Under the pieces are notes generated by a model. It was not told the DNA's origin, searched no databases, and saw only the letters and a list, made by a program, of their open reading frames with translations. Positions 33,625 to 63,443 of a DNA stretch of 64,000 nucleotides are shown here, in pieces. Where the stretch lies: positions 6,183,858 to 6,247,857 of the forward strand of contig NC_081395.1 in the NCBI RefSeq assembly GCF_030684315.1. Direction: 5' to 3'. The stretch's first letter is position 1; every line of letters begins with the position of its first letter. The translations under genes and the position numbers were made by a program. The stretch is from Stegostoma tigrinum (Eukaryota).

Positions 33625-35050
33625 GAGATAGTAGGGGCTGCAGATGCTGCAGAATCTGAGATAACACGGTGTAGAGCTGGATGAACACAGCAGGCCAAAC
33701 AGCTTCAGAGGAGCAGGAAAGCTGACGTTTCAGGTCGAGACCCTTCATCAGAAATGGGGGAGGGGAAAGGGATTCTGAAATAAATAGGGAAGGGGATGAG
33801 ATGGACTGAAGATGGATAGAGGAGAAGATAGGTGGAGAGGAGAGTATGGATGGGGAGGTAGAGAGGGGATAGGTCAGTCTGGGGAGGACAGATGGGGCAA
33901 GGGGGCGGGATGAGGTTAGTAGGTGGGAAATGGGGGTGCAGCTTGAGGTGGGAGAAGGGGATAGGTGAGAAGAAGAACAGGTTAGGGAGGCGGGAATGAG
34001 CTGGGCTGGTTTTGGGATGCAGCGGGGGAAGGGGAGATTTTGAAGCTTGTGAAGTCCACATTGATACCATTGGGCTGCAGGGTTCCCAGGCGGAATATGA
34101 GTTGCTGTTCCTGCAACCGTCGGGTGGCATCATTGTGGCAGTGCAGGAGGCCCATGATGGACATGTCATCTAGAGAATGGGAGGGGGAGTGGAAATGGTT
34201 TGCGACTGGGAGGTGCAGTTGTTTGTTGCGAACTGAGCGGAGGTGTTCTGCAAAGCGGTCCCCAAGCCTCCGCTTGGTTTCCCCAATGTAGAGGGAGCCA
34301 CACCGGGTACAGTGGATGCAGTATACCACATTGGCAGATGTGCAGGTGAACCTCTGCTTGATGTGGAATGTCATCTTGGGGCCTGGGATAGGGGTGAGGG
34401 AGGAGGTGTGGGGGCAAGTGTAGCATTTCCTGCGGTTGCAGGGGAAGGTGCCGGGTTGTGGTGGGGTTGGAGGGGAGTGTGGAGCGGACAAGGGAGTCAT
34501 GGAGAGAGTGATCCCTTCGGAATGCAGACAGGGGTGGGGATGGAAAAATGTCATTGGTGGTGGGGTCGGATTGTAGATGGCAGAAGTGTCGGAGGATGAT
34601 GCGTTGGATCCGGAAGTTGGTGGGATGGTATGTGAGGACGAGGGAGATTCTGTTTTGGTTGTTATTGTGGGGACGGGGTGTGAGGGATGACTTGTGGGAA
34701 ATGAGGGAGACACGGTTGAGGGTGTTCTCAACCACTGTGGGGGTATGTTGCAGTCCTTGAAAAACGAGGACATCTGAGATGTTCGGGAGTGGAATGCCTC
34801 ATCCTGGCAGCAGATGCAGCGGAGGCGAAGGAATTGGGAATAGGGGATAGTATTTTTGCAGGAGGGTGGGTTGGAGGAGGTGTATTCTAGGTAGCCGTGG
34901 GAGTCAGTGGGCTTGAAATGGACATCAGTTTCTAGGTGGTTGCCTGAGATGGAGACAGGGAGGTCCAGGAAGGAGAGAGAGGTATTAGAGATGGTCCAGG
35001 TGAACTTAAAGTTGGGGTGGGAGGTGTTAATGAAGGTGTTGGTGAATATT
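33625..35050 (-). mobile_element. 5'-truncated, frameshifted Penelope-like retroelement (RT C-terminus plus GIY-YIG endonuclease)
   Basis: NVVYCIHCTRCGSLYIGETKRRLGDRFAEH...EQQLIFRLGTLQPNGINVDF is a GIY-YIG domain. The upstream linker RISLVLTYHP..AFRRDHSLHDSLVRS is in another frame, with frameshifts near 34455 and 34740. Confidence 0.92.
33724..33751 (-). ncRNA. Minimal hammerhead-ribozyme-like motif in the Penelope terminus
   Basis: CTGATGA-AGGGTCTCGACCT-GAAACGTC shows both core boxes, stem II and an ACGT palindrome in place of stem III. Stem I is weak. Confidence 0.5.
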
Positions 35051-42330: not shown

Positions 42331-42873
42331 GGCAAGGAGGGGAACTTCTTGGCTGTTCAACACTGACACACCCCTCACTGTGAATGATGTTTCAGCAACA
42401 AGAAAGCTTTCCCCTCTCTGCAGGGCCATCAGCCAAGAGATGGCAGAGAGGGGGCAACAGGCAGCAGCCCCCTGACTCAGGGGTGGTGCTAATAACACAC
42501 ATTTTGGGTGGGGGTGCACAAACAGGAAGAAGCGTTGAATGCACTTATTTCATCCCCTGGCCCAGTGAGGCAGTAACCTGCCAAAGCTGCACAATCCCAG
42601 TTTGCCCAAAAATACAGCACCATCTGGTTAAAAAGGGAAGGGCGACCAGGAACAGAGAAGTGTAGGTATAACTGATCATTTATTCCTTAAACACCACATG
42701 TCTCTCACACACACACAGTGCTGCCATACTGCAATTTCTCAGAAGTCCGGTCATTCACAGTCTCTCTCTTGCTCAGGGCTTTTTATTCTTCCTTGAGAAA
42801 ACTTTAAAAAAAATATAAATCCCACAGTTGCAGCTTCTCGGGAGCACCTCAGCTTGGGGTGGACATGTTCCTG

Positions 42874-42965
42874 TCACTGTCGCTCGTTGTGGGACTGCTG
42901 TAACTCTGAGTTGTCTGCCTGGCCTCTCCCTGCATCCTGCAACTCTTCGTAGGAATAACCGAAAA
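42874..42965 (-). CDS. Unknown modular-exon gene, predicted last coding exon
   Basis: tgatttacag|TT TTC GGT..; VFGYSYEELQDAGRGQADNSELQQSHNERQ*. Downstream AATAAA at 42782-42787 and 42679-42684. Confidence 0.6.
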
Positions 42966-43203
42966 CTGTAAATCAAAAGGGGGAAGCAGGGTAAGGGTTT
43001 TCATTCATTAGGTGGCATATTATCCCCTTCATCTTTCCCACCCACTTAACTGATGCTCAAAACCAGGCATTCCCAACGGGTCAACTATTCGGCTACAAGG
43101 GGCGTCGCTTCCCCGTTGATTTTTCTCACCCTTGCTGTCAGGGTTTGTGTGTTTTGGGTGGGGGGGCGGTAGGTGTGGGCACAGGGGACAGGAGTCTGGT
43201 TAC

Positions 43204-43287
43204 CTGTGCCTTCTGCTGCACTGCGATCTGGTAAACCTCTCATCAGACTCTGGGCGCTCAGCACCTGGTCCAGCGTCTCTTCCGAAG
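43204..43287 (-). CDS. Unknown modular-exon gene, penultimate exon
   Basis: ctcctcacag|CT...ACA G|gtaac, 84 nt, phase 1-1; ASEETLDQVLSAQSLMRGLPDRSAAEGT. Confidence 0.65.
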
Positions 43288-43421
43288 CTGTGAGGAGAGA
43301 GCAGGCGAAGGCAGGGTTAGAGAGGGGCAACACAGTGCGGTGCCCCACACACAAAGATAAAAATGGCGCACGCTGTAAGGCAGCACAGGAGCGTAAACCC
43401 TCCACAAACCAGGGGGGGAGG

Positions 43422-43458
<37 letters not shown>

Positions 43459-43472
43459 TATCCAGGGCATAC

Positions 43473-43538
43473 CTTTGCCAGAATGCTCAGAGTGGATCAA
43501 GCTGTAGTCCATTGCACCAACATTGTCCAGCATCTTTC
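43473..43538 (-). CDS. Unknown gene, repeat cassette exon A5
   Basis: tttcag|GA...AAA G|gtatg, 66 nt; GKMLDNVGAMDYSLIHSEHSGK. Confidence 0.62.
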
Positions 43539-44499
43539 CTGAAATATCTGGCAGAATACAGACCGCAGTGAGACAAGTAGAATCCACACCATTAATCTGT
43601 CAGGCCTACAAAACCTTAGCATTACTGGAAAGAGAGAGAGAGAGAGAGAGAGAGACACACACACACAAACTGACCTTTCGGCATCAGGACAGAATTGCAA
43701 GAATGCCACATTTCAAAGGGGAGCGTAAATTATGCTGCGAGAGAGAAGGTGGCTATCTGGGCAGCTGATTGGTCTAAGCGTTGCTATGGAGCATGTGTTT
43801 ATTGCTCTTGATGCTTTTTCCTCATTGGATAAAGACCTTTCCAAAGTAAATTGTTGTTCCCTTTGTAATCTGGCACTCTTGCATTGGTGCTGACTTTTTT
43901 TTGGGTCAGGGGAACACAAAAGCTTCAACCATTTGTTCTCCCCCCACCACCCCCCCAATCACAGCAGGCTGTTCCATCAAATGGGACATTTGACCCTCCC
44001 ACGCTTGTACACAACACAAACATCCGTTTACTCCTCCTTCAGTTCACACCCCCATCCCCTTCTTTTGTCTATGGTGTCTATCCAGCATTCCCTTCCTCAC
44101 TCCACTGCCAAGATTCACCCTGGCTGCACAGCATAGGTAGTGAATCCCATGTTCTCCCTCACTCTATGTAAAGAAAATGAGTGTCAGGGCTCAGTCAGTG
44201 ATAGACGGATGCTATTATCACTAGACTATTAATCGAGAAACGCCGCTAATTTTCTGGGGACCCAGTATTCAGTCCCATCATGGCAAGTGGTAGAATTTGA
44301 ATTCAATAATTTAAAAAAAAGGAAATCTGGAATTAAGGGCGTATAGTGACAACCACAGTCAATCACAGTACTTCATCCACGTACCTTCAGGGACATTATC
44401 TGCCATCCTTACCTGGTCTGAGCCTACAGACACGTGACTCCAGACCCACAGCAAAGTGGTTGACTCTCAACTGCCCTTTGAAAATGGCCCAGCGAGCCA

Positions 44500-45320
44500 C
44501 TCAGCCCCACGATCTGTAACCTCATGGCCTGGCATATCCCCCACTCAACCACTAACGTCAAGACAGGAGACCAACCCTGGTTCAACAGAGAGTGCAGGAG
44601 GACATGCCAGGAGCAGCACCAGGCTGACCTGAAGATGCGATATCGACCTGGTGAAGCCATCAAACAGGACTACCTGCCAAACAGCGAAAGCAAGTGATAG
44701 ACAGAGCTACGCGATCCCACAGCCAACGGATCAGATTTAAGCTCTCCAGTCAGACTCAAGAGTCCCTACAGTGTGGAAGCAGGCCATTCAGCCCACCGAG
44801 TCCACACCAACCCTCTGAAGAGTCCTGCCGTATCCAGTCGTTAATGTTGGTGGACAATTAGACAACTTGCTGGAGGAGGAGGCTCCACAGATATCCCCAT
44901 GCTCAATGAAGGATGAGCCCAGCACATCAGTGCAAAAGCTAAGGCTGAAGCATTCACAGAGATCTTCAGCCAGAAGTGCCCAGTGGATGATCCATCTCGG
45001 CCTCCTCCAGTGGTCCCCAGTGTCACAGATACCAGTCTCCAGCCAATTCAATTCATTCCACTTGATCTCAAGAAATGATCGGAGACACTAGATACTGCAA
45101 AGGCCACGGGCCCTGACCATGTTCTGGACCATAAGTAAGACAAATCCTTCCCGGCCAATTCCTGTCCCTACAGTCTACTCTCGATCATCAGTAAAGTGCT
45201 GAAAGGTGTCACCAACAGTGTACAGCACTTGCTCAGCAACGTCCAGTTTGGGTTACACCAGGAACACTCAGCTCGTGACCTCATTACAGCCTTGGTTCAA
45301 ACATGGACAAAAGAGCTAAA
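44500..45320 (+). mobile_element. Decayed CR1-group LINE internal fragment with a short SINE-tail insertion (about 44760-44825)
   Basis: Contains the pre-RT features DQPWFNRECRR, KATGPD and QFG. Confidence 0.6.
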
Positions 45321-45587
45321 TACAGCTAACTGCTCCACACCTATGCAGGACATTTACCAGATCTGATGGGGGAAGGAAAACATGTACTTTACTGGAACAC
45401 ATCTTACTGCGGGAGAAAAATCATGTCACATTCCAGCACTTCCTGTCTGTGGTATTTGACCATGCAGTTCGAATGAACCTGTTACACTACAGCGCCCTGG
45501 AGTCCCCTCTCCCTTCTCCAGATGTGAAAGCAGTACCTCCGGAGCAAAACCCGTCTCGGGAAATATTTATTTCCAGGGAAACCGTAC

Positions 45588-45641
45588 CTTTTGTGGAATG
45601 CTCAGACCTGGCAGGATCATGTCTTCCACTCATTAACATGC
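45588..45641 (-). CDS. Unknown gene, repeat cassette exon A4
   Basis: tttttccctcag|GC...AAA G|gtacg, 54 nt; xMLMSGRHDPARSEHSTK. Confidence 0.65.
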
Positions 45642-46329
45642 CTGAGGGAAAAAAAAATACACACAATATTTAGTTGCTTGTTGAGATATTTTCCTTCATG
45701 TCCACGGGGGCATCCAGTGACACAAACAAACTTAGGATTTCCAACGCCAAAATGGGTAACTTAGCCTTCTGGTGCCTCTGCTCCACACCAGCCTCTTTCC
45801 AGAACCACCCCCATGCCTTTTCGCCTCACCCACATCACCCTATCCCTTCTCTCTCGTAACATCCCCATAAATATGTGTGCGTTCCTCTCGTCACTCTCAG
45901 GTTTTTCCCCTGATTCGGTCTGTCAGGGGGACTATCTTGTATCTACGATCCCCTGGGGCGTGCCTACATTCCCTTTCCTCTGCACCTCCTCCTGTGTCAC
46001 TGCAACACCCAAGTGCAGTTTAACCAAATTTACCAGCATTTCTGTGCGGTCCCCACTCTCTCTCCGCAACACCTCACACTAACGGACATTTACACTGGTG
46101 TATTCTGTGGCAGTCTGTGTCATTATTAAACGATGCACCCGATGGGAACATACCTGGGATACCGTAAGCAACATTGGTCCCCTTGGCCGAGGAAGGGTAT
46201 ACTCACCCTGGGGTAAGGATTTGTAAAAATAGGCCCCTTCAGCCTGCCTGCCAACGGGACCACGATTGCACCAGCTTCCTGTCTACACCCCAAAGACCCT
46301 TCACCCTCTTGCTTTGCATCACAGAATCA

Positions 46330-46530
46330 GGAAGCAGGCCATTTGGCCCATAAGTAACCTCCCCCCCCCAACCCCGCCGAAAAAGCCCTAGTCTACGCTG
46401 GTATTTCCCAAGGCCAATTCATCCCGCACATCTTTGGACTGCGTGGGGGGAAACCGGAGCACCCGGAGAAAACTCCACACAGACACAGGGAGAACGTGCA
46501 AACTCTACACAGACTGAGGGTGGAATCGAG
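46330..46530 (-). mobile_element. Degenerate HE1 SINE
   Basis: Reverse complement of the V-domain-like core. Confidence 0.65.
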
Positions 46531-46654
46531 CCTTTATCTACTCTATCACCTCATCAAAAATAAAAATTCCACAAGGTAGTTCAAACGTGGTCTTTGCTTT
46601 CAGGAACGTTTCTGTTCATTTTAGTTGTTATGTTACAGGTTTCCAGATGTTTCA

Positions 46655-47560
46655 GTTACATAGAGCTGCGCTGCATGGAAACGGGCGTTTTGGTCCAAAC
46701 ATTCCATGCTGACCGTAATCCCAAACTCAGATAGTCCCAGCTGCCTGCTCCTGGCCCATACCGCTCCAAACCTTTCCTATTCATGTTCTTATCGGAATCT
46801 GGGAACTGTACCCACATCCACCACTTCATCTGGAAGTTCGTTCCACACATGAACCACCCTCTGTGTGAAAAATAATTTCCCCTCAAGTATTTTTTAAAAT
46901 CTTTCTCCTCACTTAAAATTGAAATCTCTTGAAATCTCCAAACGTGGGGACGAGACACCCACTGTTTACCTTATCTACACTCCTCATGATTTTATAAACC
47001 TCTGTAAGGTCACCTCTTGACCCCCTACGCTCTATTGAAAGAGAAACCCCAGCCTCTCCTTATAACTTAATCCCTCCATTCTCAGCAACATCCTGGTAAA
47101 TCTCTTCTGAACCATCTCCTACTTAGCAGTGTCTCTCCTATAACAGGGTGACTAGAACACTGCACAGTACTCCAGATGAGGCCTCACCAATTTCCTGGAC
47201 AAACTCAACATGACGCCCCAACTCCCATATACAAAGGAAAACCAAAAGAACTGCGGACGCTGTAAATCAGGAAGAAAAACAAAGTTGCTGGGAAAGCTCA
47301 GCAGGTCTGGCAGCATCTGTGAAGGAGAAAACAGTGAACGTTTCAGGTCTGGTGACCCTTCCTCAGAACGGGACATGCAACAGACCCCGTGAACTCTGTT
47401 TTCTCCTTCACAGATGCTGCCAGGCCTGCTGAGCTTTTCCAGCCACTTTGTTTTTGTTCCTATTCTCAAAGGTCTGAACAATGAACAAAAACGTGCTAAA
47501 CACCTTCTTAAACACCCTGTCTATCTGTGATGCAAACTTCAAAGAATTACGAGTTTGCAT
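46655..47560 (-). mobile_element. CR1 LINE fragment interrupted by an inverted-arm Penelope-type element (47235-47460)
   Basis: LVRPHLEYC and KYLRGNYFSHR motifs; about 60-bp inverted arms at 47275-47334 and 47396-47456. Confidence 0.75.
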
Positions 47561-47741
47561 CCCTTGGTCTCTGTTCTCTAGCACTAACTCAAGGCTCTTA
47601 AAATGGATAAATCTTGCTCGTTTGTTTCACCCAAATGCAAAACCTCACACATCTTTGCTTTTGGAACTGATTACATTTCTCCAGCGAACTGGAATTGTAC
47701 AATGACATTTATAATCACTTTCTCTGGCTGCTGGACCTCAC

Positions 47742-47845
47742 AATCTATTTCCTTTCTCCGCTGAGGTTGTTTCAAACATTTCGCATTGTGTACCCTGACC
47801 GTTCCCAAATTTGCTTCGTTTTGTCCGGATGCGACAAATCCAGAC
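47742..47845 (-). CDS. Unknown gene, candidate spacer exon
   Basis: atcccag|G TCT...GAT T|gtgagg, 104 nt, phase 2-1, bridging B3 to A4; SGFVASGQNEANLGTVRVHNAKCLKQPQRRKEID. Confidence 0.45.
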
Positions 47846-48169
47846 CTGGGATTGTTTTGGGGGCCGGATTGAGTCAATTAGAACGCACACCCCTCTCACG
47901 CTGTCCAGATGTTACTAGCTGTGCTTGTTATTTAGGTAACACTGAAACGATTAGATCCCTGAATCTTACTGAAGGTATGTCACACCAAAGTGTCCAGACT
48001 AACACCAGTGTTTACAGCACAGGATAACTATTCGGCCCAAGTACTCCATGCTAGTGTTCATGCTCACTTACACATCTTCCTCATCTCCCACATCAACTGC
48101 TACTCCAGAGCCTCTCTTTATTCAGCTTCGCCCTTAACCACTCCCTGTGCCAGTGAATCCCACACTTCC

Positions 48170-48860
48170 CTCCACTCTATCAGGATGAGATGTAGGGACA
48201 GGACGCCACCATTCTGCTCCTCCCCCACTCCTTTGAGCCTGCTCAGCCATTCTATCGGGTCATGGTTGATCTGACATCCCTCACATCTGCTTTCCTGCCA
48301 TTTCTCAGTAACCCTCAATTCCCCGACTGATCAAGAATCTATCTCAGCCTTAAATACGCATGAGGGTTCTATCCCCACTGCTCTCTGTGGCAAGGACTTC
48401 TGGGGACACTCAACCCTCGGAGGAAATTCCTCCTCATCTCAATCTTCACCTTTATCCTGAGGCGTTGCCTTCCGGTCCAGACTACCCCATCAGGGGGGAA
48501 ACATCCTCTCAGCGTTTACCCAGACAAGCCCCTTAAGAACCTTGTATGTTTCAATGAGATCACCTCTCATCCTTCTAAACTCCAGTGAGCAGAGTCCCAA
48601 CCTGCTCAGCATTTGCTCACATGATAATCCTCCATTGACTGGGATTCATCCTAATGAACCTTCTCTGAACTATCTGCAGTTAGATAATACCCTTCCTTAA
48701 GCAAGGACCAAAACTGCTGACAGTAGTCCAGATGCAGTCATACCAGTAGCTTGTACAAGTGGAGTAAGACCTCCGTACTCTTATACTCCAAACCGCTTTA
48801 AGTAAAGGCCAACATTCCATGACCATTCCTGATTACCTGCTGCTCCCATGTGTTAGCTTT
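48170..48860 (-). mobile_element. CR1 LINE 3' fragment
   Basis: The reverse complement resembles the CR1 ORF2 end and 3' UTR. Confidence 0.65.
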
Positions 48861-48890
48861 GTGTTTCGTGCAGAAGCACTCCCAAGGTTT

Positions 48891-51840
48891 GGCACTGAGG
48901 CTCAGTGGTTAGCACTGCTGCCTCACAGTGCCAGGGGCCTGGATTCAATCCCCACTCTCAGGCAACTGTCTGTGTGGAGTGTACACATTCTCCCCGTGTC
49001 TGCGTGGGTCTCCTCCCACAGTCCAAAGGTGTGCAGGTTAGGGTGGATTGGCCGTGCTAAATTGTCCCGTAGTGCCCAGGGATGTGCGGGTTAGGGTGGG
49101 TTGGCCGTGCTAAATTGTCCCATAGTGTCCAGGGATGTGCGGGTTAGGGTGGATTGGCCGTGCTAAATTGTCCCATAGTGCCCAGGGATGTGCGGGTTAG
49201 GGTGGATTGGCCGTGCTAAATTGTCCCATAGTGTCCAGGGATGTGCGGGTTAGGGTGGATTGGCCGTGCTAAATTGTCCCATAGTGCCCAGGGATGTGCG
49301 GGTTAGGGTGGATTGGCCGTGCTAAATTGCCCCATAGTGCCCAGGGATGTGCGGGTTAGGGTGGATTGGCCGTGCTAAATTGTCCCATAGTGCCCAGGGA
49401 TGTGCGGGTTAGGGTGGATTGGCCGTGCTAAATTGTCCCATAGTGACCAGGGATGTGCGGGTTAGGGTGGGTTGGCCGTGATAAATTGTCCCATAGTGCC
49501 CAGGGATGTGCAGGTTAGGGTGGATTGGCCGTGCTAAATTATCCCATAGTGTCCAGGGATGTGCAGGTTAGGGTGGATTGGCCGTGCTAAATTGTCCCAT
49601 AGTGCCCAGGGATGTGCAGGTTAGGGTGGATTGGCCGTGCTAAATTGTCCCATAGTGTCCAGGGATGTGCAGGTTAGGGTGGATTGTCCGTGCTAAATTG
49701 TCCCATAGTGCCCAGGGATGTGCGGGTTAGGGTGGATTGGCCGTGCTAAATTGTCCCATAGTGTCCAGGGATGTGCAGGTTAGGGTGGATTGTCCGTGCT
49801 AAATTGTCCCCTAGTGCCCAGGGATGTGTGGGTTAGGGTGGATTGGCCGTGCTAAATTGTCCCATAGTGACCAGGGATGTGCGGGTTAGGGTGGGTTGGC
49901 CGTGATAAATTGTCCCATAGTGCCCAGGGATGTGCAGGTTAGGGTGGATTGGCCGTGCTAAATTATCCCATAGTGTCCAGGGATGTGCAGGTTAGGGTGG
50001 ATTGGCCGTGCTAAATTGTCCCATAGTGCCCAGGGATGTGCAGGTTAGGGTGGATTGGCCGTGCTAAATTGTCCCATAGTGTCCAGGGATGTGCAGGTTA
50101 GGGTGGATTGTCCGTGCTAAATTGTCCCATAGTGCCCAGGGATGTGCGGGTTAGGGTGGATTGGCCGTGCTAAATTGTCCCATAGTGTCCAGGGATGTGC
50201 AGGTTAGGGTGGATTGTCCGTGCTAAATTGTCCCCTAGTGCCCAGGGATGTGCGGGTTAGGGTGGATTGGCCGTGCTAAATTGTCCCATAGTGCCCAGGG
50301 ATGTGCAGGTTAGGGTGGATTGGCCGTGCTAAATTGTCCCATAGTGCCCAGGGATGTGCGGGTTAGGGTGGGTTGGCCGTGCTAAATTGTCCCATAGTGT
50401 CCAGGGATGTGCAGGTTAGGGTGGATTGGCCGTTCTAAATTGTCCCATAGTGCCCAGGGATGTGCGGGTTAGGGTGGATTGGCCGTGCTAAATTGTCCCA
50501 TAGTGCCCAGGGATGTGCAGGTTAGGGTGGGTTGGCCGTGCTAAATTGTCCCATAGTGCCCAGGGATGTGCGGGTTAGGGTGGGTTGGCCGTGCTAAATT
50601 GTCGCATAGTGCCCAGGGATGTGCAGGTTAGGGTGGATTGGCCGTGCTAAATTGTCCCATAGTGCCCAGGGATGTGCGGGTTAGGGTGGATTGGCCGTGC
50701 TAAATTGTCCCATAGTGCCCAGGGATGTGCAGGTTAGGGTGGGTTGGCCGTGCTAAATTGTCCCATAGTGCCCAGGGATGTGCGGGTTAGGGTGGATTGG
50801 CCGTACTAAATTGTCCCATAGTGTCCAGGGATGTGCAGGTTAGGGTGGGTTGGCCGTGCTAAATTGTCCCATAGTGTCCAGGGATGTGCAGGTTAGGGTG
50901 GGTTGGCCATGCTAAATTGTCCCATAGTGTCCAGGGATGTGCAGGTTAGGGTGGGTTGGCTGTGCTAAATTGCCCCATAGTGCCCAGGGATGTGCAGGTT
51001 AGGGTGGATTGGCCGTGCTAAATTGTCCCATAGTGTCCAGGGATGTGCAGGTTTGGGTGGGTTGGCCATGCTAAATTGTCCCATAGTGTCCAGGGATGTG
51101 CAGGTTAGGGTGGGTTGGCCGTGCTAAATTGTCCCATAGTGCCCAGGGATGTGCGGGTTAGGGTGGATTGGCCGTGCTAAATTGTCCCATAGTGCCCAGG
51201 GATGTGCAGGTTAGGGTGGGTTGGCCATGCTAAATTGTCCCATAGTGTCCAGGGATGTGCAGGTTAGGGTGGGTTGGCCATGCTAAATTGTCCCATAGTG
51301 TCCAGGGATGTGCAGGTTAGGGTGGGTTGGCTGTGCTAAATTGCCCCATAGTGCCCAGGGATGTGCAGGTTAGGGTGGATTGGCCGTGCTAAATTGTCCC
51401 ATAGTGTCCAGGGATGTGCAGGTTAGGGTGGGTTGGCCGTGCTAAATTGTCCCATAGTGCCCAGGGATGTGCGGGTTAGGGTGGATTGGCCGTGCTAAAT
51501 TGTCCCATAGTGTCCAGGGATGTGCAGGTTAGGGTGGGTTGGCCATGCTAAATTGTCCCATAGTGTCCAGGGATGTGCAGGTTAGGGTGGGTTGGCCGTG
51601 CTAAATTGTCCCATAGTGCCCAGGGATGTGCGGGTTAGGGTGGATTGGCCGTGCTAAATTGTCCCATAGTGCCCAGGGATGTGCGGGTTAGGGTGGATTG
51701 GCCGTGCTAAATTGTCCCATAGTGCCCAGGGGTGTGTGGGTTAGGGTAGGTTAGCAGAGGGAAATGCAGGGTTACAGCGGCAGGATGGTCTTCGAAGAGT
51801 CCGCGCGGACTGTGCTCCCACACGGCAGGGATTCTATGAA
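48891..51840 (+). mobile_element. HE1/V-SINE hosting the second array
   Basis: Head at 48891-49028 (degenerate A and B boxes) and a tail ending GGGATTCTATGA at about 51840. Confidence 0.85.
49029..51747 (+). repeat. Second 53-bp array, about 51 copies, inverted relative to 25838-32273
   Basis: Unit GGTTAGGGTGGATTGGCCGTGCTAAATTGTCCCATAGTGCCCAGGGATGTGCR. Confidence 0.97.
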
Positions 51841-53044
51841 TTTCTAAGTCCCTCTGTATTGCAATGTTTGTCTATTTGAATAATCCCGTTCTCCCTTCCA
51901 AAATGAACAACTGCATATTCGGGAAGGCTATGGCCCAGTGGTATTATCGCCAGGCTGTCAATACAGAGACCCAGATAATTCTGGGGAGCCCGGTTCAAAT
52001 CCCACTCTGGTAGATAGTGGAGTCTGATGATGACCACAATTCCATGGCTGATTGTCAGGAAAAATCCATCTAATGCCCTTTAGGGAAGGAAACTGTCATC
52101 CTTACCTGGTCTGGGCCTACATGTGACTCCAGACCCACAGCAATGTGGATGACTCTTAACTGCCCTCTGTGCAATTAGGGAGGGCAATAAATGCTGCATT
52201 GCCAGCGATGCCCATGAATGAAGCAAAGGTTTTCCACATTACACTCCATTTGCCAACTTCTAGCCCACTACTCATCTTTCAGTATCTCTCTATAAACCCT
52301 TCTCACAAACTGCCTTTCCACCTACTTCTGTGTTATCTGCAGATCTGGTTACAGTCCATTTGCTTTGTTCTTCCGAGTCATTAATACGTAGTTAGTGGTA
52401 ATGCTCCCAAGCACTGGTCCGTGTGGAACCTCAACGGACACAGGCACTACGGGGATGAAACAGGTTTCGGCCAAATTCTCAATGAGATTGATCGTGGGCA
52501 TGTACTGATGCCCTCCAGTTCAGCCCCTGCTCCATGTGAACGATACACACCATTGCACGGTGAAGTGGTGCCAGTCGAGTAGGGGCTGCTTTGTGCTGGA
52601 TGGTATCAAGCTTCTCGAGTGCTGTCAGAGCTGCACGCTGCCGTGTGGATGGAGGAGTTTCGGGGGAAGACTCACTCTCGGGCTGGTCTTGCAGCCACAG
52701 TATTTAAAACGCAAGTTTGGTGATAATTTGCTATTCATTCTGTTATTAACCAGCAGACCTTAAACACGAATCCAATGGTTTTTGGTGGGCGAGGGGGTGA
52801 GTTTTTATTATAGTGGAAGTTGTGTCATTCTGAAATTATTGTTTCTGATTTGATTTTGTACTTTTGAGTTTCTGTCACTGCTGGACTTTATATTTTTGTA
52901 ATCCTTGTTCCAAAGAATTTGTACATAAGAATCTGTGCCTAGGTACCTACGTAGGGAAGATGGCGCTGTAAGTGGAGAACCATAAACATTTCACTGTACT
53001 CATGTGAGTACGTGTGGCAATAAAGCTGATTCAATCTTGAAAAT

Positions 53045-53482
53045 CAGAAGATTTACGAGGATGTTGCCAGGGTTGGAGGGCTTGATCTATAGGGAGAGGC
53101 TGTGGCTATTTTCCCTGGAGCGTCGGAGGCTGACAGGTAATCTTATAGAGGTTGATAAAATCATGAGGGGCCTGGATAGGGTGAATCGCGAAGGTCTTTT
53201 CCCCCCAGGGTGGGGGGAGTCCAAAACTAGAGGGGCACAGGTTTAAAAAGGACCAAAGAGTTTTTTCACACAGAGGGTGGTGCGTGTGTGGAAGGAGCTG
53301 CCAGAGGAAGTGGTGGAGGCTGGAACAATGACAACATTTAAAAGGCGTCTGGATGGGGCATGGATAGGAAGGGTTCAGGAGGATATGGGCCAAATGGGAC
53401 TAGATTAATCGAGGATATCTGGCTGGCACGGATGAGTTGGACCAAAGGATTTGTTTTCAGAGCTGTATAGCTCTATGACTCT
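53045..53482 (+). mobile_element. CR1 LINE 3' end
   Basis: RRFTRMLPGLEGLIYRERL..FSLERRRL. Confidence 0.85.
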
Positions 53483-53635
53483 GTCTACTGCCCCCCTCTT
53501 ACCGACTTACTTATCTCCTGAAAGAATTCTGTAAGGTCGGTACAAATGTCATCTTCTCTTTTGGAATCTGTTTTGACTGTTACATTTGGGTTCCTAAATT
53601 CCTCTCCTACAATCTTTGAGTAAGGATTCTATTAC

Positions 53636-53744
53636 CTTTCCTGCCGCTGATGCTGCCTGGTCACTGATGCCCTGCTTGTTTCAGACACATTTTCAAAACT
53701 ACAAGACACTTTGATGGCTTCTCCACTTTCTCGCATTTCGTTTT
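53636..53744 (-). CDS. Unknown gene, spacer exon B3
   Basis: cattag|AA...GAA AG|gtaat, 109 nt, phase 1-2; ENEMRESGEAIKVSCSFENVSETSRASVTRQHQRQE. Confidence 0.55.
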
Positions 53745-53850
53745 CTAATGAGTGTTTTACAAACAAATTTCCTTCAGTTATGTTCAAATGTAACCCATGT
53801 GGGCCAGGCACTGCTTGGGGCGGCAACATTTAGCGCATTAGGGATTGTAC

Positions 53851-53916
53851 CTTTTACAGACTGATCAGATTTCAAGGAGCTACGATCGAGCTTTCCAAAA
53901 CTATCCGTTTGCACGT
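53851..53916 (-). CDS. Unknown gene, repeat cassette exon A3
   Basis: ttttttcag|AC...AAA G|gtaca, 66 nt; xVQTDSFGKLDRSSLKSDQSVK. Confidence 0.68.
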
Positions 53917-53954
53917 CTGAAAAAAAAATTCAGATGGTTAGATCTTTCTTATTA

Positions 53955-54460
53955 TTGCAGAGGCTTATTAAATCATGAGAGCATAGATAAGACAAATAAC
54001 AAGGGACTCCTTCCTAAGGGTAGGAGTGTTTGAACCTAGGGATTTTTTTTTAGGGCGAGAGAAGAAAGATTTTAAAAGGACATGAACATAGAAACATTAC
54101 AGCACAGTACAGGTCCTTGAGCCCTCAATGCTGGGCCGACCTGTGAAACCAATCTGAAGTCCATCTAACCTACACTATTCCATTATCATCCACATGTTTA
54201 TCCAGTGACCATTTAAATGCTGGGTCAACATTTTCTTTTTAAAAGACACAGAATGTGCTTCGTTTGTGGAATGAAGTTCCAGAGGAAGTTGTGGATGAGG
54301 ATACAGTTATAATGTTTAAAAGACATTTGGATAGGTTCATGGAAAGGTTTGGAGCGGCACGGGCCAGGAGCAGGCAGGTGAGACTAGTTTAGTTCGGGAA
54401 ACATGGGCAACATGGACTGGTTGGGCCAAAGGGTCTGTTTCTGTAGCGAATGACTCTATG
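53955..54460 (+). mobile_element. CR1 3' fragment containing an inverted CR1 tail (about 54085-54220)
   Basis: Similar to other CR1 ends in the window. Confidence 0.65.
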
Positions 54461-54653
54461 CTCACATGATATGGGGCTTGATTGCTCCACGAGTGTCTGA
54501 TACTTAGCATTTTGTCACAAACTCTGCTCCATATGAGCCTCCCCTTCGCCTGCCCCACCCCCATCTTTCTGTCCCTTCCTCCTGTGTTTAAGATTAGATT
54601 ACATTAGATTAGATTCCCTACAGTGTGGAAACAGGCCCTTCGGCCCAACAAGT

Positions 54654-55250
54654 GTTTTGGCTTTCATTAACAGGGGGATTGAGTTTAAGAGTCGTGAGAT
54701 CTTGTTGCAGCTCTATAAAACTTTGGTTAGACCGCACTTGGAATACTGCGTCCAGTTCTGGGCGCCCTATTATAGGAAAGATGTGGATGCTTTGGAGAGG
54801 GTTCAGAGGAGGTTTACCAGGATGCTGCCTGGACTGGAGGGCTTATCTTATGAAGAGAGGTTGACTGAGCTCGGTCTCTTTTCATTGGAGAAAAGGAGGA
54901 GGAGAGGGGACCTAATTGAGGTATACAAGGTAATGAGAGACATAGATAGAGTTGATAGCCAGAGACTATTTCCCAGGGCAGAAATGGCTAGCACGAGGGG
55001 TCATAGTTTCAAGCCGGTTGGTGGAAAGTATAGAGGGGATGTCAGAGGCAGGTTCTTTACGCAGAGAGTTGTGAGAGCATGGAATGCGTTGCCAGCAGCA
55101 GTTGTGGAAGCAAGGTCATTGGGGTCATTTAAGAGACTGCTGGACATGTATATGGTCACAGAAATTTGAGGGTGCATACATGAGGATCAATGGTCGGCAC
55201 AACATTGTGGGCTGAAGGGCCTGTTCTGTGCTGTACTGTTCTATGTTCTA
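54654..55250 (+). mobile_element. Well-preserved 5'-truncated CR1 LINE nested in a minus-strand HE1 SINE (54590-55497)
   Basis: Open 170-aa ORF2 C-terminus (LYKTLVRPHLEYCVQFWAP...FFTQRVVRAWNALP), a TTCTATG tail, and AAGT on both flanks. Confidence 0.92.
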
Positions 55251-55546
55251 AGTCCACACTGCCCCTTGAAGCATCCCACCCTGTAACCCACACACCCCTG
55301 AACACTATGGGCAATTTAGCATGGCCAGTTCCACCTAGCCTGCACATCTTTGGGCTGTGGGAGAAAACCAGAGCACCTGGAGGTAATCCACGCAGACACG
55401 GGGAGAATGTGCAAACTCCACACAGTCGCCCGAGGCTGGATTCGAATGCGGGTCACTGGCGCTGTGAGGCTGCAGTGCTAACCACTGAGCCACCGTTACC
55501 CTTCATTGTATCGCATGAGCGTGTCCTACACTGTGCCTTCATCCAC

Positions 55547-55726
55547 TTGGGGAGAATACTGCACTGAAATCCCGAACGGATTCATCAGGGACTATCCTGC
55601 TTCGGTCCCACTTTGACACACGAGGGGAAAAGGAAGAAGTGTATCTATTTTCCTCTTGTTTTTGCACTTTCTCCAGTGACCCTGCATCCTTTTTGTTTCT
55701 GGGGACGTGGGAGATACCACAGCTCA
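55547..55726 (-). CDS. Unknown gene, spacer exon B2 (donor uncertain)
   Basis: ggttacag|TG AGC..; VSCGISHVPRNKKDAGSLEKVQKQEENRYTSSFSPRVSKWDRSRIVPDESVR. Only weak phase-1 donors are visible. Confidence 0.4.
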
Positions 55727-56067
55727 CTGTAACCCCGAGAGTGTTGCAGCCTGAAGTTTAACACCATTTTCTCAATCCTGCGTGCCTGCCACTGAGCCCA
55801 GGTGTTCTGGCAATTTCTTACCGTCCTGCGCTGATAGCTTTAGTGATTTTTTTTTAAAACCATTTTTTTGCGTCCATCCTCTGCCGCGTTAAATACCATT
55901 CCGATATCGGTTCAGCCGCAAACGTTTCAATTTTATAAACTTTGCAGGGGGCGGTGTTCCCATACATCTGCTGTCCCTGTCCCTCTGAGTGGCATAGATC
56001 ACAGGTTCGGAAACTGCTATTAACGGAGCCTGATGCATTTCATTCATCAATTAACTGGAACCCATAC

Positions 56068-56130
56068 CTCTTACAGACTGTTCTGATTTTATTGAGCCGG
56101 TCTCCATTCTTCCAAAGGGGTCCAATACTC
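56068..56130 (-). CDS. Unknown gene, repeat cassette exon A2
   Basis: gtttttcag|GA...AGA G|gtatg, 63 nt; xVLDPFGRMETGSIKSEQSVR. Confidence 0.68.
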
Positions 56131-56452
56131 CTGAAAAACACAGGCGAAGGTAACCATATCCTGCGCCTTGGTGATGATGTTGGCAGAGAGCTCAAATTAC
56201 ACCAGAAATAGCAGGAACTGCAGGTGCTGGAGAATCTGAGATAACAAGGGGCAGAGCTGGATGGACACAGCAGGCCGAGCAGCATCAGAGGAGCAGGACC
56301 GAAACATCAGCCCTCCTGCTCCTCTGATGCTGCTTGGCCTGCTGTGTTCATCAGCTCTACATCAAATTACACCCCTGCAGCCTAACATTTGGAATGTAAA
56401 ACACGTGCAGACTACCTTGCTCCTTGAGTCTGCTGCTCATCTCTTCCCTTTC

Positions 56453-56750
56453 ATAGAATCTCTACAGGGGGTGGGGAGGACGCAGGCCATTTGACCCATC
56501 AAATTCACACTGACCCTCTGAACAGCATCCTACCCAGACCCAACCCCCTACCCTAGCCCTGTAACCCTGCATTTCCCACGGCCAATCCACCCCGACCTAC
56601 ACATCTTTGGACTGCGGGAGGAAACTGGAGCACCCGGAGGAAACCCACGCAGACACGGGGAGAATGTGCAAACTCCACACAGTCACCCAAGGCTGGGATC
56701 GAACCCGGGTCCCTGAGGCTGCAGTGCTAACCGCTGAGCCACCGCGCCGC
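56453..56750 (-). mobile_element. HE1/V-SINE
   Basis: A and B boxes plus V-domain-like core on the minus strand. Confidence 0.85.
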
Positions 56751-57699
56751 CCCAACTTTCTCCCTCCACCTTCCACCCAGCTTCCCCTTCGAATGCATCC
56801 AGATTATTCACACACACCACCCCGTGTGGGGAGCGAGCTCCACTTCCTTCCCATTCTCTGAGTAAAGACATTTCTCTGGAATTCCCGATTGGATTCGGCA
56901 GTTACTGTCTTCTGTCGATGAGCCCCAAGGTCTGATCTCCCCTTACAATCTTCTCTCTGTCTGCCATTAAAAGCCCTCACTTTAAAGACCTTGATCAGAT
57001 TGTCCCCATGGCATCCTCCCTTGTACAGAATGGAACTGCAACCTGTTCAGTCTTTTCTGATGGGTGCAAACGCTCAGCTCTGGGATCCCTCTCTTTTTGC
57101 ACCCCCAAGAACATTAATAATATGGAGACCAAAACTTAAGCTGCTGAGCACAAGGCAGCTCAGCACCACCTTTCCAAGAGGCAATAAATGCTGTGCCCAG
57201 ACAGTGATGGACGCATCCCCTGAATTAATTTAGAGAGTAAAAACTCCCAAAGTGTAGCTTTAACCAAAGGTCTGATACAACTTAAAACAAAAAATCACTT
57301 CTCTGCTTTTCTACAAATGAATCTCAGTTTCGTTTCTATTTTGGGGTCTTGTCAATGCGTGACCCCTGACCTCTGTCCCTCTCCTCCATTTACACTCATT
57401 TTCCAAACAGTGTCCGACCTCCTTATCCATCCCAACAAATCATTTATTCATCTTGAGATTCAGCTGCAGTCCTCCAGCTATTTTCCATGTCTTCCCATTG
57501 CCCCCCACCGTCTATTTACTCGATCCCCCAATTTCATGTCATGTTGGACAGATCGGAATGCGACTGTCAAATCCCAAATCCAAACTGTTAGCATATTCCA
57601 TCTTGCTGTAGAAATCCAGGACTTATCTTCTCTGTCGGCTGTTCCTCTGGGGCTAATTTTGCTTTTGGTTTGCTTTACACAGTGTCTCTGCTAATTCTC

Positions 57700-58190
57700 A
57701 GAGCCATACAGCATGGAAACAGACCCTTCGGTCCAACCAGTCCGTGCCGACCATAATCCCAAACTAAACTAGTCCCAGCTGCCTGCTTCTGGCCCATATC
57801 GCTCCAAACCTCTCCTATTCATGAACTTATCCAAATGTCTCTTAAACGTTGTAACTGTACCCACATCCTCAGGAAGGTTATTCCACACACGAACCACCCT
57901 CTGTGTAAAAAATGATCGCCTCGCAAGTCTTTTTTGAATTACTCTCCTCTGACCTTAAAAACGTGAACCCTGGTCTTGAAATCCCCCATCCTAGGAAAAA
58001 GACAACTATTATTAACTCTATCTATACCCCTCATGATTTTATAAACTTGTGTAAGGTCGCCTGTCAACCTGCTATGCTCCAGTGAAAGAGAGTGCTAGCC
58101 TATCCAGCCTCTCCTCGGAACTCAGACGTTCCATACCTAGAAACACCCTGGTCAATCTATTCCGAACCCTCTCCAGTTTAATTATATCCT
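57700..58190 (-). mobile_element. CR1 LINE 3' fragment
   Basis: Similar to 18690-19190. Confidence 0.8.
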
Positions 58191-58421
58191 CCCCTTCTTC
58201 CCAAATTACCTCTGATAATGAATAGAGATTCGGCATCCAGACCAGGGCTTTTGAGGATCTAAATATGTTACATCTAGCATGTTAGCCTTAACCAGCCATC
58301 CTTAATAAGATTGATCAAATGCGACCTGCACTTTTGAGATCTGTTCTGTTTGTTTATTATATGTTAAGGTCCTTAATGCCTTTGTTAAGATCTTCGAGGA
58401 AGGATTCCATTATCGCCTGAC

Positions 58422-58526
58422 TATTTTGTGCCCTGGATTTTTCCTTTCTCCTATTCCCCTTTTGGAGTGTTTTGTTTTTAAAAAGCAAAGTCTCTGCCAG
58501 CTGTTCCCAAATTGCTTTTAACGCAT
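58422..58526 (-). CDS. Unknown gene, spacer exon B1 (donor uncertain)
   Basis: tatatttag|AT GCG..; DALKAIWEQLAETLLFKNKTLQKGNRRKEKSRAQN, with a possible donor A|gtcagg. Confidence 0.45.
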
Positions 58527-58607
58527 CTAAATATAAGCCACAAGGACCAGACGCTGTTTGTTTGTGGGGTGCAGGGAGGGCTACAAGCTGTGAATTGGAA
58601 ACTGTAC

Positions 58608-58673
58608 CTCTTACATGCTGTTCAGATCTCAAGGAGCCACGGTCCTGTCTTCCAGAAGCTTCCATCGACATGG
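58608..58673 (-). CDS. Unknown gene, repeat cassette exon A1
   Basis: ttttccag|CC...AGA G|gtaca, 66 nt; AMSMEASGRQDRGSLRSEQHVR. Confidence 0.68.
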
Positions 58674-58819
58674 CTGGAAAATATTTGCAATATTTAGGTA
58701 ACCGCATTCTGGGCCTGGTCAAATCACATTTGCTTATTCGAGTGCAGAACCTCTCCCTCTGTAACATGGACACTCTCAAGATATCACTATTCATTTCCCC
58801 AAGCTCTCTCGCTGGAGGG

Positions 58820-59162
58820 AGGGGAAAGGATTTTAAACGGACACAAGGGGAAAGACTTTTCATGCAGACGGTGGGGTGTACGCGGAATGAGCTGTCCGAG
58901 GAAGCGGTAGAGGTGGGTACAAATTTAGGCATTTAAAAGACGTTTGGGTAGGTACAGAAGTAGAGGGATAGGGGCCGAATGCTGGCAAATGGGACTCGTT
59001 ATACAGCCAAGTCATACAGCACTGAGTCAGGCCCTGTGGCCTAACTTGTCCATGCTGACCAAGTTTCCCAAACTGAACTGGTCCCATTAGCCAGCATTTA
59101 GCCGCTATCCCTGTAAACCCTTCCTATCCATGTCCCCATCCAGATGCCTTTTAAATGTTGTA
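58820..59162. mobile_element. Two CR1 3' tails in opposite orientation
   Basis: Plus-strand tail at about 58820-59000 and minus-strand tail at about 59010-59162. Confidence 0.7.
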
Positions 59163-59362
59163 NNNNNNNNNNNNNNNNNNNNNNNNNNNNNNNNNNNNNN
59201 NNNNNNNNNNNNNNNNNNNNNNNNNNNNNNNNNNNNNNNNNNNNNNNNNNNNNNNNNNNNNNNNNNNNNNNNNNNNNNNNNNNNNNNNNNNNNNNNNNNN
59301 NNNNNNNNNNNNNNNNNNNNNNNNNNNNNNNNNNNNNNNNNNNNNNNNNNNNNNNNNNNNNN
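59163..59362. other. Assembly gap (200 N)
   Basis: Run of 200 N. Confidence 0.99.
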
Positions 59363-60010
59363 CCCCTCCTCCCCCTCTCCTCCCCCCCTCCCCCCCTCTC
59401 CTCCCCCCCCTCCCCCCCCCCTCTCCTCCCCCCCTCCCCCCCCTCCCCCCCCCTCTCTCCCCCCCCCCCCCCTCCCCCCCCCCCCCCTCCCTCCTCCCCC
59501 CCCCTCCCCCCCCCCCCTCTCCTCCCCCCCCCTCCCCCCCCCTCTCCTCCCCCCCCCTCTCCTCCCCCCCCTCCCCCCCCTCCCCCCCTCCTCCCCCCCC
59601 TCCCCCCCCCTCCCCCCCTCTCCTCCCCCCCCCTCTCCCCCCTCCTCCCCCCCCTCTCCCCCTCCTCCCCCCCCTCTCCCCCCTCCTCCCCCCCCTCCTC
59701 CCCCCCCCTCCCCCCCTCCTCCCGCCCCCGTCTCCCTCCCCCCCTCTCCCTCCCCCCTCTCCCTCCCCCCTCTCCCCCCCCTCCCTCCCCCCCCTCCCTC
59801 CCCCCACTCCCCCCCCCCCCTCCCCTCCCCCCACTCCCCCCTCTCCCTCTCTCCCCCCTCCCCCCCTCTCCCTCCCTCCCCCCACTCCCCCCTCTCCCTC
59901 CCTCCTCCCCTCCCCCCCACTCCCCCCACTCCCCCCTCTCCCTCCCCCCACTCCCCCCCCTCTCCCTCCCCCCCTCTCCCTCCCCCCTCTCCCCTCTCCT
60001 CCCCCCTCTC
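59363..60010. repeat. Almost pure C/T low-complexity tract next to the gap
   Basis: About 650 bp of polypyrimidine; may be low-quality consensus. Confidence 0.9.
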
Positions 60011-60799
60011 ACACTGTGGCCAATCATGTCGAAGAACGAGTGTCTCACCGGGACCCCCCCCTCACAACACACCTCCCTTCCTCCCACGCTGCCCCTGCCC
60101 CCATTCCCTCCCCCAGAACCCCCTCCATTCCCTCCACTGCCCCATTCATTCCCCACCTCACACCACTCCTTCCCCTTCACCCCACCCCCCACCATCCATG
60201 CCTGCCCCACAACCACCCCCCTGCATTCTACTCCACCCCCCCCACCCCCTGCCATTCCCCCCCACCCTGCTCCATTTAACTCCCACCCACTTTGATTCAA
60301 TGCCCCCCCCCCGATCCAGTCAATTCCCCACTCCCTGTACGTATTCAAATCCATGCCCCCCCCCAACACGCTCTCCCGTTCTCCCCCCCACCCCCCGGGC
60401 CTGTCCATTCAGTCCTCCTTAGCCCACCTCCCTCCCTTTCCCTACCCATCCCCCTCTCCCACAACATCTCCCATCCAATCCGCTGTCTCTCCGTGAGATT
60501 CAAAGATGTAGGAATATTCTCCACAGCCAGTCAGGATACAGAATGCCTGACGCTCCCACCTCCCCCTCACCAGCAACACCCCACCCCCCCACCCCCACCC
60601 CACCGACTGGGAAGGTCTCTCTCCCTCCTTCTCTCTGACTCTGACGGGCACAACCTCATTTCTCACTTGGCAGAGCCTTGCGAAAGAAGAAAGGGCAGGT
60701 AGAGCCCGAGCTGGGCTGGGCCAGGCCGGGCTGATCTAGTGTCCCCTCCCCAGTCCCCCCGATCCCCTCCTCTCCACCCTCTCCTGCCCCCACACCCAC

Positions 60800-60872
60800 C
60801 CCCAAAGAGGGAGGGCAGCGCCGCTGGACCCCCCTCTCCCTGGTTGACTTGCTGCAGAGGACCGAGGGCTAT
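60800..60872 (-). CDS. Unknown gene, candidate upstream exon
   Basis: (ct)n..ggttacag|ATA...GGG G|gtgggt, 73 nt, phase 0-1; IALGPLQQVNQGEGGPAALPSLFG. Confidence 0.35.
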
Positions 60873-61899
60873 CTGTAACCCGCAGCTCAGAGAGAGAGAG
60901 AGAGGAGGAGTGTCAGAGAGAGAGAGGAGGAGTGTGTGTGTGTGTGTGAGAGAGAGAGAGGAGGAGAGAGCAAGATTGAGAGAGAGAGGAAGACAAAAGA
61001 GAGAGACTGAGTGGACGAGAGATAGAGAGAGAGATAGAGGAAGAGAGTGAGGGATTGAGAGAGGAAGACAAAAGAGAGAGATATCGAGAGAGCAAGAGGA
61101 CGAGAGAGCGTGTGTGGAATAGATAGAGAGGTTGAGAGTGTGACAGAGAAAGACAGATTGACAGTGGGAGAGAGAGAGAAAGAGCCTCTTGGTACGCTGC
61201 ACCATCTCCTTCTAGAATCGACATCCTTCCTGTCCCTCTTCCCCCTGGATTATCCAGGAACTGCAGCCTCCATAGACTCCGACAACACCCCTGTGCCCCC
61301 CTCCGCCCTAGCCTTCGATTCTCTCGGTGCCACTCCTTGTGCCCAGCTCATCGTTGAAGAGGTGGGTGCGACTGGGCAACATCATTTATGGTGCAATCAA
61401 TACTGTCTTTTATTGGCATGGGGGGGGGGGGGTGTTCATGCCCTTTCCCTGTGTCTCTTTCCAATCCCCTCCCCAACACAACCTCTCCCACAGCCCCTGC
61501 CAGGGCACCCCCCCCACCCCCCACCCCCCACCTTCTACCCCTGAGTGAGTGACCAAGGGGAGAGAATCTGCAGCCAGGGCACAGCGAGCAAATTTGGAGG
61601 GGGGGGGGGTGGGAAGAGTCGCACAGGCAGAGAGGGGGGGGGAGCTCCTCACCGAGGGAAGGGGGCTGGCAGAGATTTCTGTGGGGGGCCGGGGAGCAAG
61701 AAGCCGTTTGGGGAAATTGTGATGGAAGGGTTGTATGCCTAAAGGACGTGAGGTTTGTTCCTGAGTGGGGGTCGGGGGGGGGGGGGAAATGGAGGGAATC
61801 GGAGAGGGGAGGTAGTGAGGGTTGGTGTGTGCGCGGACCATAGCCCGTGGTACATAGATGGTACTGCTGTGGGGGTGGGTGTGGGGCAATGCGCTAGTG

Positions 61900-63130
61900 A
61901 GAGTGTGTCTGTCTGTATGAGGCTGTGTGTGTGTGTGTATTTGTCTGTCCCATCTGTATGAGACTGTGTCTGTATGAGGCTGTGTGTCTGTATGTGTGTG
62001 TCTGTGTGAGACTGTGAGTGTACTCCTGAGTCAGGCTGTGTTTGTGTATGACTGTATGAGTGTGTAGGAGGCTGTATGTGAATGCGTGAAACTGTGTGTA
62101 TCTGTCTGACTAACTGTGTGAAGCTGTGTATATTTGTCAATGTGTGTCATGTGTGAGACTCTCGATGTGAGTGCATGTGTTTGTCCATGAAACGGTGTCG
62201 GTGTGTGTCAAAGAGCAAGTCTATATGAGAGCCTCTGTGTGTCTGTATAAATGTGACTCCATGTGCAAGTGTGTGTCAGTGTGAGTGTAACTCTGTGTGT
62301 GCCTGTGTATGTGCGTATGTGTATGTATGCATGTGTGTGTGACGAGTGTGTAGGTATCTGTCTGACTTACTGTGTGAGGCTGTGTATATTTGTCAATGTG
62401 TGTCATGTGTGAGACTCTCGATGTGAGTGCATGTGTTTGTCCATGAAACGGTGTCGGTGTGTGTCAAAGAGCAAGTCTATATGAGAGCCTCTGTGTGTCT
62501 GTATAAATGTGACTCCATGTGCAAGTGTGTGTCAGTGTGAGTGTAACTCTGTGTGTGCCTGTGTATGTGCGTATGTGTATGTATGCATGTGTGTGTGAGA
62601 GTGTGTAGGTATCTGTCTGACTTACTGTGTGAGGCTGTGTATATTTGTCAATGTGTGTGTGTCGGTGTGAGTATGAACATGTGTTCCCAAATGACTGTGT
62701 GTATACTTACGTGTGTCTGTGTCAGTGTGAGAGACTGTGTGTGAGTGTGACTGTGTGAGCATCTGTGTGACCCTGTGAGTGTGATTGCGTGTGTGTTAAT
62801 GTGGGTGTGACTGTGAGAAAGTGTCAGTGTAAGTGTGACTGTGTATCTGCATGTGTACCAGGTGACTGTGCGTATCTGTGAGTGTGTGAGTGTAACTGTG
62901 TCAGCAAAAGTGTGACTGTGTGTGTGTCAGCGTGACTATGGGGGTGTGTATGTCAGTGTGAATGTGTCAGTGTGAGAGTGACTGTGTGCACGAGTGTGAC
63001 TGTGTGCGTCAGCGTGAATGTGTGCATGTGAATGTGACCATGTGTGTCAGTGTGACTGTGTATGTCAGTGTGTGTGTGCATGAGTGTGACTGTGTATGTC
63101 AGTGTGACAGTGTGTGAGTGTGACTGTGTA
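61900..63130. repeat. Degenerate (TG)n region containing a near-exact 256-bp tandem duplication (about 62098-62655)
   Basis: TATTTGTCAATGTG recurs at 62131, 62387 and 62642. Confidence 0.85.
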
Positions 63131-63133
63131 TAC

Positions 63134-63251
63134 CCTGTATCTGACAGGACATAATGTGAGAGGAACAGTTTTGTGAACCCAAGCGAGGATGTGGGTGATG
63201 GAGTGTCTCCAAGGATGTTGTAGGGGGAAACAGTGGTAGAGGATGAGCCAA
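63134..63251 (-). CDS. Unknown gene, candidate exon 2
   Basis: ctttcctccag|T TGG...AGG|gtata, 118 nt, phase 2-0; WLILYHCFPLQHPWRHSITHILAWVHKTVPLTLCPVRYR. All three frames are open, so the frame is inferred. Confidence 0.4.
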
Positions 63252-63375
63252 CTGGAGGAAAGGGAGGGAGTTTTTGGTGGGGGGAGCACATAGTGAGGAG
63301 GGCGGTGTCAGGTTAAAGGGCACAGGGTGTAATGAAGATTGGGCCACATGGCCAGGGCAACCCATGAACGTTGAC

Positions 63376-63443
63376 CTGTCGCCAAGGAAACCCCTCTCAC
63401 TGATTTCCATTGGCCACCCATTATATTCATTCTGATACGACAT
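63376..63443 (-). CDS. Unknown gene, candidate first coding exon
   Basis: ATG at 63443; MSYQNEYNGWPMEISERGFLGD AG|gtcaac, phase 2, compatible with the next exon. Confidence 0.3.

Follow-up and report, generated by a model that had tools for sequence, protein, structure and literature searches.

Seipin, the product of BSCL2, is understood to form a ring in the membrane of the endoplasmic reticulum that nucleates lipid droplets, with its C-terminal tail facing the cytosol. The human gene has 11 exons, with small phase-1 exons at its 3' end like those described below, and the cytoplasmic tail spans residues 264-398 of the 398-residue form; we know of no such repeat in it as is reported here. A 2013 paper by Yang et al. 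concerns, by its title, the 'evolutionarily acquired C-terminus' of seipin, and may discuss cartilaginous fish. Symmetric phase 1-1 cassette exons are familiar from tropoelastin and from the variable exons of CD44. A passage in PMC3655832 gives the length of the human tail as 135 residues, and passages in PMC4182903 and PMC6192094 describe the mammalian tail as binding lipin 1 and 14-3-3 beta and as needed for adipogenesis, with the core alone acting on lipid droplets. Here we report on seven minus-strand exons, five of them copies of one repeat, in the zebra shark, Stegostoma tigrinum. They lie in a stretch of 64,000 nucleotides, hereafter the window (assembly GCF_030684315.1, contig NC_081395.1, positions 6,183,858 to 6,247,857), which was analysed together with upstream sequence as an extended window of 184 kb. 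We consider it probable, with some reserve, that the seven exons are the 3' end of shark BSCL2/seipin, encoding a disordered cytosolic tail that was lengthened by exon duplication, and that the exons for the core fall in an assembly gap.

The original prediction for this DNA described five small, mutually similar exons on the minus strand, and their places, sizes, AG and GTA ends, lengths divisible by three, phase 1-1 and quoted peptides were all verified. These are A1 (58608-58673, 66 nt), A2 (56068-56130, 63 nt), A3 (53851-53916, 66 nt), A4 (45588-45641, 54 nt), which is the shortest and most diverged copy, and A5 (43473-43547). The length of A5 is 75 nt with the RefSeq acceptor at 43547 and 66 nt with the acceptor at 43538 chosen originally; both are in frame. 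The chain ends as had been claimed, with two further exons, a stop codon and AATAAA: the penultimate exon T1 (43204-43287, 84 nt) is also phase 1-1, and the last exon, T2 (42679-42965), contributes 29 codons before TGA at 42876-42874, with AATAAA present twice, at 42787 and 42684. An AG precedes every A exon. The polypyrimidine tract that had been ascribed to each of them does not hold for A1 and A5, whose acceptors are weak and poor in polypyrimidine (top 8% of 1137 AGs).

The background for exon candidates was the set of 9452 AG..GT open phase 1-1 stretches in the 184 kb. When scored at the protein level against the other four repeats, A1, A2, A3 and A5 were each equalled or exceeded by none of the 9452 other candidates, and A4 by three. 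A leave-one-out DNA profile gave 40-43 bits for A1-A3 and 19 bits for A5, where the best background stretch in the same 184 kb reached 9.3 bits. The mutual likeness of the five A exons is thus beyond chance. T1 is no significant copy of the repeat at the protein level (p 0.085 to 0.77 against the five repeats).

The units containing A1 and A3 align over 439 columns, of which 251 are identical (z 23). The alignment takes in about 330 nt of downstream intron common to both exons, and the intron alone gives z 12; therefore, whole exon-plus-intron units were duplicated, and the proposed growth of the gene by exon duplication is borne out. A similarity between the introns of A5 and T1 (z 13.7) proved to be an artefact of overlapping windows. 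A possible decayed sixth copy, consisting of an exon end and intron flank on the minus strand at 47748-47910, lacks an intact splice donor; its match to the A1 unit is weak (111 of 195 columns identical, z 3.4, reached by 3 of 300 shuffles). No further repeat exons are present in the 120 kb upstream, and the A exons are confined to a single locus in this assembly, not scattered through the genome as fragments of a transposon would be. Within the fetched long interspersed nuclear element (LINE) stretches, neither the A and T exons nor the proposed spacers overlap any match to 30 reverse transcriptase loci or any match of a profile built from 30 CR1-type copies. An origin of the A exons as fragments of the tested CR1-type LINE families is not supported, given this lack of overlap and their single locus. 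The growth mode and the option of in-frame skipping are the same as in tropoelastin and CD44. No sequence relation to these proteins was found, the exon chain matching no Pfam family; moreover, only five copies are present, and the product is probably cytosolic, not secreted.

The gene had been called unrecognised, but it is already predicted in the database, without a name. A profile of the five A exons matched two proteins among 1178 candidates, the product of LOC125449392 of S. tigrinum, an uncharacterized RefSeq prediction with the records XP_059497524.1 and XP_059497525.1, and a whale-shark record. The chain A1-A5, T1 and T2 is identical to RefSeq isoform X1 from residue 13 onwards; when A2 is left out, it is identical to the whole of isoform X2. 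The first 12 residues of X1 are a read-through of the intron in front of A1, as is usual in 5'-truncated gene models, which suggests that X1 is a model cut at the assembly gap. Both records are unnamed and probably cut at the 5' end; for A5 they take the acceptor at 43547, and neither contains a spacer exon. Frame-neutral cassettes had been expected to allow alternative splicing, and one of them, A2, is present in X1 and skipped in X2. Since RefSeq models of this type usually rest on RNA-seq, the skipping of A2 is likely real.

Two further elements of the original prediction are not supported. Charged spacer exons had been placed after three of the repeats, at 58526 (S1), 55726 and 53744 (S3). 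They occur in neither RefSeq isoform and have no good in-phase donor: the highest-scoring in-phase GT reaches -2.1, -0.6 and -2.8, respectively, where the donors of the A exons range from 0.3 to 4.3, on a scale computed with general consensus frequencies. With a strong-looking donor after 53744, the exon length would not be divisible by three. The acceptor of S1 scores above that of A1, so acceptor strength alone does not exclude S1. CR1 LINE debris was considered as a source of the spacers and rejected (best blastp E 0.33; z at most 2.3 against five copies; no profile matches). The spacers are best read as plain intron, and S1 resembles S3 because both were duplicated along with their exons. 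The ATG at position 63443, which had been proposed as the start, belongs to neither model, and an assembly gap that went unmentioned separates it from the exons. In-frame ATGs are available where A1 begins, and the frame of A1 runs on without a stop through the 81-nt 'intron' and S1, for 191 codons in total (window 58357-58932, minus strand), so that a version of A1 that ends later or keeps this intron could be translated as well.

The second protein found with the repeat profile is XP_048475532.1 of the whale shark, which is named 'seipin isoform X2'. It was found at E 2e-25, and 69 of its 84 residues over A1-A4 are identical to the zebra shark chain without gaps; at A1, 21 of 23 aligned residues agree. 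In this protein of 91 residues, the counterparts of A1-A4 follow one another as in the zebra shark and keep the frame. It differs from the zebra shark chain in its first residues, and it stops after A4, without A5, T1 and T2. It begins with MTDIRTR, at variance with the DNA before A1, and nothing in the 184 kb matches these residues at 5 or more in 8; therefore, they likely come from an upstream exon that the zebra shark assembly lacks. The term 'orphan', also applied to the gene originally, is probably wrong, given an orthologue named seipin and a locus with the layout of BSCL2 and GNG3. It is likely an unusual, lineage-specific version of a known gene.

The whale-shark record also bears on whether the exons are translated. 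They could be real duplicates that are non-coding or decaying, the protein models being an annotation by-product. The splice junctions here are predicted from sequence, one copy seems decayed, and where the paralogous exons differ, third codon positions are only slightly over-represented (45 vs 26 and 29). However, none of the seven exons breaks the reading frame or the phase, their splice ends have been kept while the introns drifted, and the frame is kept in the orthologue over four exons. We regard this explanation as very unlikely.

The surroundings of the exons point to BSCL2. An assembly gap of 200 N at 59163-59362 lies 490 bases upstream of A1 and adjoins a G/C-rich, low-complexity tract at 59363-60005; it is the likely place of the missing 5' exons. 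Beyond it, on the plus strand, is a G-protein gamma gene whose ATG is 6.9 kb from A1 and 6240 bases beyond the gap. Its two coding exons (L002:1602-1703 and L003:3602-3727) span extended-window positions 65602-77727, with the gene start at 65602 and the second coding exon near 77600. By its sequence features this gene is probably gamma-3, or gng3-like. BSCL2 was first named Gng3lg, and PMC9678972 cites a title that describes it as a gene whose transcription diverges from that of Gng3. The opposite-strand neighbour at this locus matches that divergent layout. Because the G-gamma gene diverges from the locus as Gng3 does from Gng3lg, the repeat exons occupy the place expected of the 3' part of bscl2. 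The likeness to the human gene further extends to a hydrophilic tail of similar length (135 vs 165 residues). No sequence likeness to human seipin is demonstrable, and the core is not found here.

What has become of the core? In the whole assembly, the luminal seipin domain PF06775 gave no match among the 5 candidates scored, and a seipin core motif gave none. No core was found in 132 minus-strand open reading frames (ORFs) from the gap to 84.5 kb, three border-crossing ORFs being left unscanned, or in 121 ORFs beyond 84.5 kb, where two such ORFs were left unscanned. The hydrophobic minus-strand ORFs upstream have no Pfam match. The same kind of genome search returned 17 G-gamma matches, and it detected the seipin partner Promethin/LDAF1 at E 1e-9 (C27:49094965-49095120); therefore, the assembly contains a conserved lipid-droplet gene of this sort, and the search is able to recover it. 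The seipin core appears to be absent from the assembled sequence. This is why we call the exons likely seipin and do not file them as seipin: PF06775 was not found, while a gap lies at its expected place. This absence, next to a control family that is found, would also fit a true loss of the core in the lineage, with the tail exons persisting as a tail-only gene. We consider that highly improbable, as the gap at the expected place is of unknown true size and borders a G/C-rich tract, and the whale-shark gene is named seipin. GC-rich, repeat-rich loci such as the Hox C cluster are described, in a passage of PMC10620051, as dropping out of shark assemblies. The gap is the simplest cause of the missing core.

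The link of the exon chain to a seipin core is one that we infer, and, besides the missing core, several results weigh against it. The name on XP_048475532.1 is an automatic, gene-level assignment; this isoform X2 has no Pfam match and no seipin domain. A protein with both the seipin core and the repeats was not found: only the two of 1178 candidates noted above matched the repeats, and searches by length gave 1 of 46 candidates at 97-310 residues and none of 508 at 311-2000 residues. HMMER over 1.84 billion representatives returned two real matches, neither with core plus repeats, and the seipins of other annotated sharks did not appear in these repeat searches. As protein searches see cluster representatives only, which can be shorter than the other members, as one case here shows, this blank is weak but real evidence. 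In the PDB there was one chance match (P0003, E 0.56) and none for P0002, with no likeness to solved seipin chains. PDB matches of the G-gamma gene are to gamma-2 or are unnumbered. The sentence of PMC9678972 itself, as distinct from the title it cites, places BSCL2 and Gng3 'head to tail'. Finally, the chain contains no R-x-x-S motif, the usual 14-3-3 site.

Several of these points would be expected of a separate small carpet-shark gene that either follows directly after bscl2 or replaces it and encodes a soluble, disordered repeat protein, with the whale-shark name derived from a read-through or merged model. RefSeq has LOC125449392 as a stand-alone uncharacterized gene, in-frame ATGs are available at the start of A1, no core-plus-repeat protein came out of the database searches, and the whale-shark isoform, at 91 residues, has no core. 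Such a gene is hard to reconcile with a chain whose first exon opens with a splice acceptor and is 490 bases away from a gap, with the other residues that precede A1 in the whale-shark protein, and with seipin missing from the whole assembly exactly at its syntenic place. We therefore regard a separate gene as possible but rather unlikely, and prefer the assignment to the 3' end of BSCL2.

Other leads did not add to this assignment. HMMER matches P0004 and P0005 are unrelated repeat proteins at E about 1e-3, attributable to chance. The ESM Atlas, searched by features, gave no usable match (every template-modelling score <0.5). The Ser-rich N-terminal repeats of teleost NLR and finTRIM proteins were another lead, and no such protein is among the matches; membership in that group would call for a NACHT or TRIM domain, and the gene ends 57 residues after A5. 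A motif of the human seipin tail gave no matches, and a suspected resemblance between T1 and the human tail was not counted. Among the papers that came up for seipin and sharks, none deals with shark seipin, judged by titles and the beginnings of abstracts, and at the level of exons only an irrelevant paper came up.

The encoded chain has 165 residues, 16% Ser and a mean hydropathy of -0.94, a charge-hydropathy plot places it with disordered proteins, and its Atlas model has a pLDDT of 0.43, in agreement with the disordered, Ser-rich product predicted originally. The best 19-residue hydropathy is 0.23, so there is no membrane segment, as expected for a tail. Each repeat contains S-(E/D)-(Q/H), and there are eight S-x-x-S pairs. 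In the proposed mechanism, a motif of the type G-x3-(D/E)-x2-S-(L/I)-(R/K/H)-S-(E/D)-(Q/H), looser in A4, would occur four or five times along a floppy chain on each seipin subunit. The shark tail would perform the same docking job as the mammalian tail, with a repeated motif. The S-x-x-S spacing may permit primed phosphorylation, and cassette skipping could set a different number of docking sites per oligomeric ring.

To the left of the gene are an LC3C-like last exon, a Dapper-family gene (PF15268; window 9239-25421, minus strand) and, at the left end of the window, what we take to be a ttc9-like gene, whose linkage in human also speaks for BSCL2; the Dapper-family gene lies between the other two. 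To our knowledge, the human BSCL2/TTC9C locus has no DACT gene. Penelope-like retroelement fragments with GIY-YIG likeness are present at window 33982-35049 and at L006:1090-1422, both on the minus strand, the latter with a weak Pfam match (E 6e-4). Arrays of a 53-bp unit occur at window 25839-32273 and 49030-51747 and at extended positions 66917-74031, 87836-89755 and 101630-102697. These five arrays in 184 kb have 20 to 134 copies with 93-95% matches. More than half of the 12-kb intron of the G-gamma gene is this tandem repeat. The unit looks cut from the middle of the common shark short interspersed nuclear element (SINE), and the arrays end in SINE sequence. A 54-kb array of a 52-bp unit, of about 1050 copies (L007-L013, extended window 122310-176588), lies inside a two-pore potassium channel gene, presumably kcnk4-like, with exon-like ORFs at 116604 and 179998.

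A broader proposal is that whale and zebra sharks, whose fat is stored in the liver instead of adipose tissue, rebuilt the cytosolic seipin tail from a duplicated phospho-motif cassette tuned by splicing. One isoform would then be a soluble tail lacking the membrane core, in competition for the partners of the full-length protein's tail. The soluble isoform is suggested because the whale-shark model has only 91 residues. PMC6854647 states that sharks store fat mainly in the liver, and PMC4182903 that the seipin tail is required for adipocyte formation in mammals. We put this proposal forward as speculation that is unlikely to hold. The exons represent neither a new protein family nor a new mechanism of gene structure. 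If the assignment to BSCL2 is true, an unnamed RefSeq gene would get a name, and the absence of seipin from the assembly would be explained. The seipin tail would then have been rebuilt by exon duplication in sharks, providing a natural tail variant for swap experiments.

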